Positions 9,721 to 15,925 of a DNA stretch of 64,000 nucleotides are shown here, in pieces; the first letter of the stretch is position 1; the number at the start of each line of letters is the position of its first letter. The translations under genes were made by a program, and so were the position numbers. The notes beneath the pieces are model-generated. The model was not told where the DNA came from and searched no databases. It worked only from the letters and a program-made list of their open reading frames with translations. The DNA comes from Nitrospirota bacterium (lineage in GTDB: Bacteria > Nitrospirota > UBA9217), in the NCBI GenBank assembly GCA_963790205.1, contig CAWBNQ010000014.1, positions 128,001 through 192,000 of the forward strand, written 5' to 3'.

Positions 9721-9972
9721 TTACGACTCGACTGAGCACATGTCATTGTCGCCGAACTGGCAATCATCGGGCAGCACGGCCTGTTCGCCATGTCCCTTGA
9801 TCGAGCTCTTGATCGCCTGGAACGCCCCCTGCTCCGCGTGAAGAATCTCAGAAGTGACCGGTTCCATCTCACGGGGCGCTTCACCCTCGTCCCTGAACGC
9901 CCTCACTTCATAGGCCTCGGTAAGCGTTTCCCGTGTCGGCACTTTTTCGGATATCTTTGCAAACAGTTTCAT
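9721..9972 (-). CDS. Small hypothetical protein, 83 aa
   Basis: Strong RBS AAAGGAGG upstream; acidic C-terminus with two Cys. Confidence 0.6.
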   Translation of the reverse strand: MKLFAKISEKVPTRETLTEAYEVRAFRDEGEAPREMEPVTSEILHAEQGAFQAIKSSIKGHGEQAVLPDDCQFGDNDMCSVES

Positions 9973-10140: not shown

Positions 10141-10796
10141 TCACGCTGCTGCACGGCGCCGGAAATCCTGGAGGAGCCGTGTCACATCCGCATCGGTCAC
10201 CTGTCTAAAATCCTCGTAGAAATTGCCGACAGCCATGAAATCCCCGGGCATGGCCAGACAAACAAAGACGTCTACCATCCTTTGCAGTTCCGCTGCGGGA
10301 TAGGGAGGGGCAACCGGAACGGCGACTATGAGCTTCCCGACCTGTTCGCGCTTCAGCATCTCCACAGCCGCCTTCCTTCATGGTAGCGCCGGTAGCAACG
10401 CCGTCGTCCACGAGAATAACGGTTTTACTCCGCAGGTCCGCGAGCTTTTGGCCGCTTCGGTACAGCTGCCGCCGGGCGGTCTCCTCACGCTGTCGTGCCG
10501 GTCTCGCCGCGCAGATAATCCTTTGTGACTTCAACCGATGCAACAACATCTTCGTTATAGACAATGCTGCCGGTTTCGGGAATTGCACCTACGGCAAGCT
10601 CGGGCTGCCAGGGGTGTCCTATTTCCCGGACAATAAGGACGTCCAGAGGGGCTTTGAGGCGATTCGCGATCTCGGCCCCGGTGACGACCCCGCCCCGGGG
10701 AAGCGCGAGAACGAGAAAGTCGCGCTGTCCGGCATAGTCTTTGATTTTTTCAGCCAGTTGCGTTCCGGCATCTTTTTTGTCTTTGAACGTCTCAAT
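10141..10796 (-). pseudogene. Phosphoribosyltransferase-family pseudogene
   Basis: FKDKKDAG...VLALPRGGV...PELAVGAI / VILVDDGVATGATM / VAVPVAP...FMAVGNFYEDFRQVTD in different frames; start reads ATT after an AGGAG RBS. Confidence 0.8.
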
Positions 10797-10975
10797 TCTC
10801 CTGATCTAATCTTATCAAATAAGCTTCTGGATCGCGATCCTTCTATACGAACAACAGCAAGTCGCGGATTATAAGTATTAATTGCTTTTCAGAAAAGTTA
10901 TCACAAAAGTCAAGCGACTAAAGTACTAACAAGGCGATCGTTCCTCGTTTCCCTGCCCCTCTTTAACATCACCAC

Positions 10976-11004
10976 TTGACAAGGTGTGGTATATTAAATA
11001 GTAA
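10976..11004 (+). promoter_or_regulatory. Sigma70-type promoter of the structured RNA
   Basis: TTGACA at 10976-10981; extended -10 TGgTATATT at 10987-10995 (alternative TAGTAA at 17-bp spacing). Confidence 0.6.
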
Positions 11005-11306
11005 GGCGTTGCCGGACTGACACTGAGAAGTGTTAAACGTATCTTTAACTTTCGTTGAGGGCCTTAAGCTCCACAACCCGGCGTGATCCGGAAACGGCAA
11101 ACGGCAGTCCGTGAGGATTGTTAAAGTGCCGGTTTGCAGGTCACCAAAGATTGGAAAGCGGAAAGCCCCTGAGGCCGAAGGAGAATTTGGCGAAGGAAAC
11201 GAACCACCTCAGGATTTGCGAGAGCTGATCCCAGAAGTGATCGTGGATCTTACCGAATATCCCGAGGTTCAACGGAATGATTAAGATGCGGGTCCAAAGC
11301 AGCGCC
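11005..11306 (+). ncRNA. Unclassified highly structured non-coding RNA, about 300 nt
   Basis: No ORF; 5' GGCGTTGC pairs with 3' GCAGCGCC; nested long-range helices; GAGA, GAAA, GTGA and GAGA tetraloop hairpins; bounded by promoter and intrinsic terminator. Confidence 0.8.
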
Positions 11307-11325
11307 GTATTTATTGTTAAAAACG

Positions 11326-11361
11326 AAAGCCGGCAGGGGACGAATCCCTGCCGGCTTTTTT
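11326..11361 (+). terminator. Rho-independent terminator (possibly bidirectional)
   Basis: AAAGCCGGCAGGG...CCCTGCCGGCTTTTTT. Confidence 0.9.
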
Positions 11362-11466: not shown

Positions 11467-11865
11467 TTATGATTTCTTCTGTCCGGTCTGGGAGGCCTTC
11501 AATGCCGCCAGGTACTTGCGCTTGTTTTCGAGGACCTCGGATTTCAATACCGACGCGTCCCTGTTCACCAGGCGCTCGACCGGGCGGTTGTTCATGAAAT
11601 GCTCGCGAACGATCTCGGGCACATCGGTCTTCTGCACTCCCGAGTACCACACGCCGTCCGGATAGACAACCATGTTCGGACCGCGTTCGCAGAGACCGAG
11701 CGAGCCCGATGCGGTCACGTGGATCTCGTCGGCAAGGCCGGTTTTGCCGAGTTCGGCGCGGAGCGCTTCGAGGACTTCCTTGCTCCCCTGGTTGGTGCAG
11801 CTCGGGGCTTTCGGGTCCGGCTTCTCCTGCGTACAGAGGTAGACATGATAACGGAACGGTTCCAT
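11467..11865 (-). CDS. Thioredoxin-like [2Fe-2S] ferredoxin
   Basis: RBS GAGGAGG; HVYLCTQ...SC...GLCERGPNMVVYPDGVWYSGV. Confidence 0.85.
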   Translation of the reverse strand: MEPFRYHVYLCTQEKPDPKAPSCTNQGSKEVLEALRAELGKTGLADEIHVTASGSLGLCERGPNMVVYPDGVWYSGVQKTDVPEIVREHFMNNRPVERLVNRDASVLKSEVLENKRKYLAALKASQTGQKKS

Positions 11866-14749: not shown

Positions 14750-15925
14750 ATGGAACAAAACGCTTCCAAGACTCTGGTCCGGAATGTCATGTTTGAATTT
14801 GCCGATCTTACCGGGCTGGTATCAACACGGGTAGCGCCGCGGCGCTACTTATGGACCGACGCGTTTGCCGTCTGCAACTTCCTGGAGCTTTTTCGTCAAA
14901 CGAATGATGAGCAATACAAGCAGCTCGCCCTGCGGCTCGTCGATCAGGTCCATCACATACTCGGACGACACCGTGACGATGACCCGCGAACCGGATGGAT
15001 CAGCGCTCTCGATGAAAGAGAAGGCGCACTACACCCCACACGGGGCGGGTTACGGATCGGCAAGAGGATGAACGAACGCAGACCCGATGAACCTTATGAC
15101 GAACAACGGGAATGGGACCAGGACGGACAGTACTATCATTACCTCACGAAATGGATGCACGCTCTTAGCCGGGTGAGCCGGGTCACGGGAGATCCGACCT
15201 ACAACAGGTGGGCGATCGAGCTTGCGAAAACGGCGCATGCCGGGTTTACCTACGCTCCGTCCCCCGGCGGCCGAAAACGCATGTACTGGAAGATGAGCAT
15301 TGACCTCTCCTATCCGCTCGTAGCATCGATGGGACATCACGATCCTCTCGACGGACTCATCACGTACCTCCACCTGCAGGCGACCGCGTCAAAAGCCTCC
15401 GATAAATCGGCACGGTTCGACCTCAGCGCAGAGATTACGGACATGGCCGCTATGTGTGAAGGAAAAAGATGGGAAACAGACGACCCCCTTGGCCTTGGCG
15501 AGCTCTTGAGTACCGCATACAAACTGGCTCAATTGATACTCATCGAAGGTCTTGTGCAGACCGACCTTCTGGATGCTCTCTTGAGTTCATCCCTGGTTAG
15601 TTTACAGGCCTCTGCGGGCAGGGACCTCTTGAAGCTTCCTGCCCGATACCGGCTTGCATTCCGGGAGTTGGGATTGTCTATCGGATTGCACGCGATCGAG
15701 AGGTTGCAAGGACTGATCAAACAAACTCCAGGCGATTTCAACGGGAAACCTCGTCTGCTTTCGCGGACCGAAAGCCTGATGCAGTATACACCTCTCAGTG
15801 ACAGTATCAAGACGTATTGGCTTGACCCCTCCAACAGACAAGCGAGCGAATGGATGGCGCATCGTGATATCAATATGGTCATGCTGGCAACCAGTCTGGC
15901 CCCCGAGGGGTATCTCTCCCTGTGA
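14750..15925 (+). CDS. Conserved hypothetical protein (possibly six-hairpin alpha/alpha toroid)
   Basis: 391-aa ORF with distinctive RRYLWTDAFAV, GGLRIGK, DGQYYHYLTKW motifs. Confidence 0.7.
   Translation: MEQNASKTLVRNVMFEFADLTGLVSTRVAPRRYLWTDAFAVCNFLELFRQTNDEQYKQLALRLVDQVHHILGRHRDDDPRTGWISALDEREGALHPTRGGLRIGKRMNERRPDEPYDEQREWDQDGQYYHYLTKWMHALSRVSRVTGDPTYNRWAIELAKTAHAGFTYAPSPGGRKRMYWKMSIDLSYPLVASMGHHDPLDGLITYLHLQATASKASDKSARFDLSAEITDMAAMCEGKRWETDDPLGLGELLSTAYKLAQLILIEGLVQTDLLDALLSSSLVSLQASAGRDLLKLPARYRLAFRELGLSIGLHAIERLQGLIKQTPGDFNGKPRLLSRTESLMQYTPLSDSIKTYWLDPSNRQASEWMAHRDINMVMLATSLAPEGYLSL

Follow-up and report, generated by a model that had tools for sequence, protein, structure and literature searches.

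The window (the whole 64,000-nt stretch of a Nitrospirota contig under analysis) contains a plus-strand RNA gene bounded by minus-strand genes on both sides (Table 1). The sequence-only reading had described an ORF-free segment of about 300 nt which, with both neighbours on the opposite strand, could not be a leader, and this agrees with the 302-nt body that we delimit, in which no open frame reaches 80 codons. The broken frames of the divergent neighbour reflect either a pseudogene or assembly indels; the same phosphoribosyltransferase-like gene is undisrupted in loci L003 (219 aa) and L273 (217-219 aa in both), and it also lies near family RNAs at L006, L021, L273, L346 and L436. The convergent ferredoxin-like gene is absent from the other loci examined. 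Further out, a plus-strand gene (14750-15925) encodes a 391-aa protein without a Pfam match, homologues of which (66-82% identical) adjoin family RNAs in L008, L011, L254 and L307; a minus-strand ORF of 83 aa (9721-9972) also has no Pfam match, and darP lies 7 kb from the RNA. For the body, the folding energy is -115.9 kcal/mol (z = -5.9 relative to 150 dinucleotide-shuffled sequences), compared with -99.1 kcal/mol for its reverse complement; with the terminator included, z is -6.9 on the plus strand and -4.8 on the minus strand, and the plus strand folds more stably in 83 of the 101 family members.

Table 1. Features of the RNA locus, in window coordinates.
Feature	Position	Strand	Evidence and remarks
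Divergent neighbour, phosphoribosyltransferase-like gene	10208-10805	-	Split over several frames
Imperfect palindrome, core ACTAAAGT (10917-10924)	10913-10928		Conserved; 81-86 nt 5' of the RNA in close copies
TTGACA	10976-10981	+	Kept in many close copies; 8 nt from the -10 hexamer, out of -35 register
Extended -10 element TGnTATAnT, putative promoter	10987-10995	+	Present in 25/27 accessory copies
RNA body, 302 nt	11005-11306	+	Full-length match of core-only covariance model; RNA contigs 11013-11307
P1 5' strand, pairs with 11299-11306	11005-11012	+	Sequence almost unchanging family-wide
P2 5' strand (pairs with 11291-11294) and side hairpin P2a with GAGA loop	11015-11034	+	Alignment pairing
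P3 and P4 5' strands (pair with 11283-11290 and 11269-11277)	11038-11058	+	Lead into the three-way junction
Arm 1, irregular hairpin of ~110 nt	11059-11168	+	A-rich internal loops; GUGA tip at 11111-11114
Arm 2, irregular hairpin of ~95 nt	11174-11268	+	GAGA tip at 11220-11223; kept in all variants seen
Intrinsic-terminator-like hairpin	11326-11361		Similar hairpins after most close copies
Convergent neighbour, small ferredoxin-like gene	11467-11865	-	Weak PF06999 match, below cut-off

An own promoter and a strong terminator had also been claimed for this segment. The conserved extended -10 element, from which a transcription start at about 11001-11003 is predicted, argues for the promoter, but a consensus promoter scan returned a single chance-level site inside the RNA (1 found, 1.0 expected); the word GTGGTATAnT occurs 23 times in the genome. 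The terminator hairpin is followed by a T run on either side and probably serves both, but the scan calls a terminator on the minus strand only. Promoter and terminator are both conserved at loci with differing neighbours. Homology upstream mostly stops at the palindrome, a possible activator site that presumably resembles DosR/NarL-type boxes; as a regulon-wide element the palindrome was rejected, its 48 sites genome-wide comparing with 96-109 in three shuffles.

Homologues were recovered from related genomes at two depths. BLASTN gave matches in 19 of 101 relatives, all from the window's taxonomic family and four of them to the terminator only, and a sequence profile found the RNA in 63 of the 64 genomes of one Nitrospirota class, which we take to be GTDB UBA9217, the one miss being a genome 68% complete. 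All 32 good-quality genomes of the class (32/32) carry it. The class search returned a single taxonomic family, that of the window, so that family and class coincide here. Class UBA9217 is described, in the part of the source available, as aquifer-associated and as carrying Wood-Ljungdahl and sulphate-reduction genes (PMC11033732).

Outside the class, sequence model R1 gave one weak match among 114 genomes, and model R2 gave partial matches (E up to 0.05) in 28 of 124 genomes, of which none of the 12 inspected was full-length and three of six printed stretches look by eye like ribosomal-protein coding sequence. Structural model R3 gave four short matches (E 0.017-0.044) among 118 genomes, and none in three further genomes or in 121 genomes of another phylum. 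Within the genomes sampled, then, the RNA was not credibly found beyond the class, and remote homologues may escape such searches. Pattern scanning of a genome collection (27 of 64 parts) yielded 120 loci, seven of them confirmed by the profile, with record titles naming Nitrospirota or Nitrospirae in six cases and, by title alone, Betaproteobacteria in one; in metagenomes (33 of 64 parts) 13 of 120 loci were confirmed. None of 86 viral pattern loci was confirmed, the core pattern gave no match among mobile collections, and the plasmid and phage collections contained no family match. Locus L127 and about 16 others, all from record CAWBFP01, are chance pattern matches from one alphaproteobacterial MAG, whose printed locus appears by eye to encode a transposase, which suggests an insertion sequence present in many copies. 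A small-peptide gene was rejected as an account of the family: closed ATG frames range from none (20/101 members) to 73 codons in length, and indels that break the frame are frequent.

In a tree of 101 members, which omits one partial sequence and 12 profile matches with cut, short or unusual ends, the family resolves into two clades, one of 61 core copies and one of 40 accessory copies, with support 100/99. Core copies group largely by genus, have a sigma-70-like promoter and, at 59 loci, stand in divergent orientation to a pabB/trpE-like gene that scores below all curated cut-offs and has a second paralogue elsewhere. With a loose pattern, a boxA-like word is found about 10-30 nt before P1 in 59 of 61 core copies and in one of the 38 accessory copies scored, and a U run directly follows P1 in 57/61 and 14/38, respectively; the two remaining accessory copies had too little flank for scoring. 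The same boxA-like word is found after the rRNA operon promoter of this genome, and NusB is encoded in the genome; the boxA word given for B. subtilis in the accessible text of PMC13753749 resembles that of the core copies. An origin of the RNA from rRNA was rejected, the family profiles having found no likeness in this genome's rRNA operon.

The window's copy belongs to the accessory form, and no boxA follows its promoter. When trained on core copies only, a covariance model matches it from end to end (61.4 bits, E 2.9e-19), so the core and accessory forms are homologous. Two more distant copies are present in the same genome, on contig C3, where a methyltransferase gene (L030:10022-10738, minus strand) lies between the core and the second RNA copy on the same strand. 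A methyltransferase gene is also found upstream of the RNA in L299, and none separates the tandem copies of L290.

Within the accessory clade, the window's subclade (21 rows, support 100/99) mixes genera g1, g3, g9, g11 and g19 on short branches. Across the 11 genomes with both types, window-type copies from different genera share a mean identity of 0.81 and core copies one of 0.61 (44 pairs), the values within genera being 0.82 and 0.83 (11 pairs); these pairs are not independent of one another. Monophyly is rejected for eight g19 copies (p-AU 0.0025) but not for the two G037 copies (p-AU 0.058). Accessory neighbours vary by locus but share a pool that includes the phosphoribosyltransferase-like gene and the 391-aa protein. 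Homology among copies reaches from about 90 nt upstream to beyond the terminator, which argues that copies move as DNA; inspection of the flank alignments by eye showed neither terminal repeats nor a shared transposase. Horizontal transfer of the window's subfamily between genera is the simplest reading of these patterns, and a likely one; an old duplication combined with stronger constraint and many losses could stand in its place, and is not the simplest.

Copy number and length also vary. Between two and five profile matches were returned by 23 of the 64 genomes, a count of matches rather than verified copies that includes at least one non-member (L451), and G000, G001, G005, G014 and L290 have the RNA in tandem at the core locus. 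In G001, three tandem copies are spaced by about 400-490 nt (L032:10696-11884), two of them with a boxA-like word of their own, and a fourth copy lies 7 kb away. Seven members (L034 and L445-L450) are 230-249 nt long; they lack the distal half of arm 1 and keep P1, P3, P4 and arm 2. One of them, L445, lies near a darP homologue. The L013 copy is truncated. A divergent second copy at L434:2530-2795 has no P2a hairpin, and the tip of its arm 2 has about 16 bases in common with a hairpin of this genome's rRNA leader, which may be chance.

The structure model, built from averaged pair probabilities and RNAalifold, comprises P1 and P2, a side hairpin, P3 and P4, and a three-way junction bearing two irregular arms (Table 1). 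All of the helices that the sequence-only reading had folded by hand are present where it placed them, some inner pairings being weaker or differently arranged. Among 25 close homologues, the helix 11005/11306 is paired in 98% of cells, 11015/11294 in 93%, the hairpin 11020-11033 in 88%, 11038/11290 and 11050/11277 in 91% each, and the arm tip 11103/11122 in 93%; P2 contributes the top covarying pair. The inner helices TCCAC/GTGGA (75%) and CCGGCGT/GTGCCGG (73%) are weaker, and GGTCAC pairs with GTGATC at 11083 in 94% versus 85% with GTGATC at 11237. The helix CCTGAGG/CCTCAGG (11168/11213) is paired in 89%, with three two-sided changes (1/500 shuffles), and the arm-2 helix that competes with it, which covaries and is the supported one in core copies, reaches 94% there (0/500 shuffles); the former is a possible alternative helix in the window's subfamily.

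Covariation among homologues exceeded shuffled expectation in both alignments tested. For the 25 close copies, 91.4% of cells are paired versus 89.5 +/- 0.2 in shuffles and two-sided changes fall at 30 of 105 pairs versus 15.2 +/- 3.0, slid partners pairing at just 34-41%; for 55 core copies the corresponding figures are 85.6% versus 79.7 and 56 of 89 pairs versus 35.5, a total slightly lowered by four pseudoknot pairs that lie one column off. No shuffle out of 500 reached the observed pairing or covariation in close or core copies, in a comparison whose structure derives from the same alignments as were counted and whose shuffles ignore relatedness, which distinguishes it from an R-scape test. 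These compensatory changes support the two long arms as predicted from the alignments. P1 behaves differently: all 12 columns that are invariant among 54 diverse members fall within it and it has no compensatory change, indicating that it is constrained in sequence and not in pairing alone. Junction sequences vary from subfamily to subfamily, few loop bases are conserved across the family, and GNRA tips are found in accessory copies but not in core copies. Two candidate pseudoknots, between the arm-1 loop and either the P3 loop or the 3' strand of P4, are 87-91% complementary, and their covariation is within shuffle range (326/500 and 215/500 shuffles as high, respectively).

Part of the stretch is contained in 20 sequencing runs, and four RNA runs from three studies, selected for containing it, were aligned to the window. 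Contigs of relatives pile on 11013-11307 in all four of these metatranscriptomes (4/4). Summed depth over the RNA reaches 44,350 in X11 and 3,467 in X10 and does not exceed 16 and 108, respectively, in the rest of a 3.3-kb region; depth here is that of contigs summed over organisms, strandless, with the 5' end not shown and no DNA control; as the flanking genes differ among organisms and may be absent, empty flanks cannot rank expression. None of the 171 X11 contigs runs 20 or more unlike letters beyond the RNA, and several have adapter letters right after the 3' strand of P1. These contigs hint, weakly, at a discrete RNA ending at P1, before the terminator, with the mature 3' end probably at 11306. 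The discrete 300-350 nt transcript that had been proposed as a check is in this respect hinted at, by contigs that are confined to the body and carry no strand information. The copies seen in the RNA runs are of the accessory type. The 83-aa ORF is also covered in X10 and X11 (depth to about 108), the other neighbours being nearly empty.

Comparison with catalogued RNAs gave no family to which this one belongs. No part of the window reached the gathering threshold of an Rfam 15 model; relaxing the cut-off to E 10 over 601 bases gave 17 weak hits, centred on the terminator or flanks; seven diverse family loci searched at E up to 0.5 gave no match in the RNA bodies; and 20 loci gave three weak hits, none within an RNA body. 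A confident Rfam hit, which would have removed novelty, was absent. The RNA had been said to lack the hallmarks of tmRNA, RNase P RNA, SRP RNA and 6S RNA, and the genuine genes for all four were found elsewhere in the genome. ARAGORN calls no tmRNA in the window and one on contig C1; RNase P RNA has no Rfam match here and a true gene of 261 bits elsewhere; and SRP RNA and 6S RNA have none at E up to 10, with a small SRP RNA of 73.6 bits and a true 6S RNA of 97.7 bits elsewhere. The shape attributed to 6S RNA in the text available to us, a single hairpin of 180-200 nt with an open central bubble (PMC9130861), contrasts with the 302-nt, branched RNA of the window, in which P3 and P4 are paired in 91% of cells and there is no large symmetric central bubble. 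Ms1, at about 300 nt, is set apart by an actinobacterial host, synteny with a HAD hydrolase and a central bubble with short end hairpins (PMC9130861, in part), since the family's host titles are Nitrospirota and its neighbour is pabB/trpE-like.

Several further candidates were rejected on gene content or neighbourhood. The 98%-complete genome has no match to PF02599 (csrA), speaking against a CsrB/Rsm RNA, none to PF05731 (Ro60/TROVE), speaking against a Y RNA, and no KhpA/B domain was found in it. Neither the window nor the seven diverse loci match the raiA motif, OLE, ROOL or GOLLD in Rfam. A retron or other reverse-transcriptase-linked ncRNA was set aside, the genome's two reverse-transcriptase matches (on C3 and C5) being far from all three copies and none being among the window's neighbours. 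The same genome contains three Hfq-domain matches, two of them adjacent (C11:119724-120237 and C3:892980-893165), and two selenocysteine tRNA genes were called (C1:656899-656993 and C8:121701-121799).

With no Rfam hit, covarying helices, a conserved promoter and terminator, and contigs confined to its body, the stand-alone large RNA of unrecognised family that had been proposed is a real structured RNA gene, the boxA-free accessory copy of an uncatalogued class-wide family. As to what it does, we tentatively favour, as possible rather than probable, a trans-acting, abundant and dose-dependent protein-binding RNA, a scaffold or titrator of which the window contains an accessory paralogue and whose partner would read P1. 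Transcription by a sigma-70-type polymerase would begin immediately upstream of P1, and in core copies, as in rRNA operons, the NusB/NusE complex would be loaded, a step that the window's copy would skip; the transcript would be trimmed on its 3' side to the end of P1; P1, P2 and P2a would be recognised by sequence, the two arms supplying shape; and additional copies, having travelled from genus to genus as DNA segments that include promoter and terminator, would raise dose or change control. A protein reader is suggested because the P1 helix is fixed in sequence; the arms would act as shape because they covary, vary in sequence and tolerate the loss of 50-70 nt; and amount would matter because the RNA has been duplicated and spread repeatedly. 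Judging from the genes not found, the partner is not CsrA, Ro60 or KhpA/B. By analogy with 6S RNA, Ms1 and CoRP, the leading candidate would be the transcription machinery, but the presence of a canonical 6S RNA in this genome counts against that analogy, abundant polymerase-bound RNAs being described as one type only per species in the available part of PMC11077062.

Of the two functions offered by the sequence-only reading, ribozyme-like or RNP scaffold, the scaffold is the better fit. A size and multi-helix fold comparable to those of RNase P and group I introns, and a 3' end that appears precise, would suit a ribozyme, but catalysis is argued against because no loop or junction bases are invariant: invariance is confined to the terminal helix, the junctions differ among subfamilies, and neither a supported pseudoknot nor an Rfam ribozyme match was found, which makes this the most improbable of the accounts we weighed. 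A folded particle or oligomer made of RNA alone, acting through tertiary shape in stress or dormancy as may ROOL, GOLLD or raiA-motif RNA, is unlikely but has more in its favour, namely the long arms, the GNRA tips and A-rich internal loops of accessory copies, a conserved closing P1 like that reported, in the accessible text, for raiA RNA (PMC12968392), and an rRNA-style leader that could aid co-transcriptional folding. The lack of a supported pseudoknot, the few conserved loop bases, the core copies without GNRA tips and the dispensability of half of arm 1 all weigh against it.

The boxA word of the core copies raises a role in the ribosome or in rRNA biogenesis, for example as a decoy that draws off Nus factors or ribosomal proteins, or as a resting-ribosome factor, and one short member near a darP homologue, like the darP gene 7 kb away in the window, would fit. 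Such a role is nonetheless distinctly unlikely, given that the profiles bear no resemblance to this genome's rRNA operon, that no Rfam ribosomal leader matches, that the accessory copies, those seen in RNA runs, have no boxA, and that the darP link is a single case. The extra copies could also be passengers that are not selected. In its fuller form, in which the core copy is functional and accessory copies are passengers or selfish derivatives doing little for the host, this account draws on the mixing of five genera on short branches in the window's subfamily, the rejected monophyly of the g19 copies (p-AU 0.0025), the differing neighbours and the truncated L013. It seems to us slightly more doubtful still, as accessory copies retain promoter, terminator and a fold with compensatory changes and are present in RNA libraries, and as there are no terminal repeats or shared transposase to be seen and no viral, phage or plasmid match.

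A literature search, with most subscription papers outside its scope, found no paper on such an RNA. The main text of PMC11109978 contains no Nitrospira-related names, and its supplements could hold the family; the available part of a bioRxiv preprint (10.64898/2026.10.21.760802) contains none either, and its supplements and cluster database could likewise hold it. At the family level the RNA is new, no membership test that was run having placed it in a known family. To our knowledge, few stable RNAs persist in nearly all genomes of a bacterial class, and several class-wide stable RNAs, among them RNase P RNA, SRP RNA, tmRNA and 6S RNA, proved central. A more ambitious version, which we think has a low chance of holding, would make the family a new class of stable RNA produced by rRNA-type Nus antitermination, retained by every member of the class and assembled into an RNP of a new kind, with boxA-free, independently regulated and horizontally exchanged paralogues that retune or compete with the core particle. 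The accessible text of PMC13753749 names rRNA, suhB and CRISPR arrays as led by boxA, and to these three kinds of transcript the core RNA may add a fourth. The natural series of boxA-bearing core, boxA-free accessory and short half-arm forms offers ready constructs for structure work, and lets one ask what Nus factors do for a non-ribosomal RNA, within the scope of one class known here from genome assemblies alone.

Set beside known systems, the family shares single traits with several. Like CsrB, RsmY and RsmZ it is multi-copy, stand-alone and purine-rich, with 10 GGA words in the window's copy, but these words number 4 to 10 per copy across the family and are not arrayed in short hairpin loops. 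Large SRP RNA of the archaeal or Bacillus type has a similar outline, with paired ends, a small 5' hairpin, a long helix and a two-arm junction; the arms of the family, by contrast, are about 100 nt each, and there is no Rfam SRP match. The order of promoter, boxA-like word and stable RNA in core copies is that of a boxA-bearing rRNA leader, but the product has no likeness to rRNA and the window's own copy has no boxA. OLE, ROOL and GOLLD are likewise large structured bacterial RNAs of unclear function. The raiA-motif (ModT) RNA is reported, in the part of the paper available, to be abundant, to vary in its peripheral stems and to have a closing P1 that is strongly conserved and is held by tertiary contacts (PMC12968392); it has two pseudoknots and comes from a different phylum, whereas the family RNA has no supported pseudoknot. 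Ms1, CoRP and 6S RNA, as far as the accessible texts describe them, are alike in being abundant, stand-alone, lineage-restricted and structured, with a conserved context (PMC9130861, PMC11077062), but each is built as one hairpin with a central bubble, whereas the family RNA is built around a three-way junction with two long arms.
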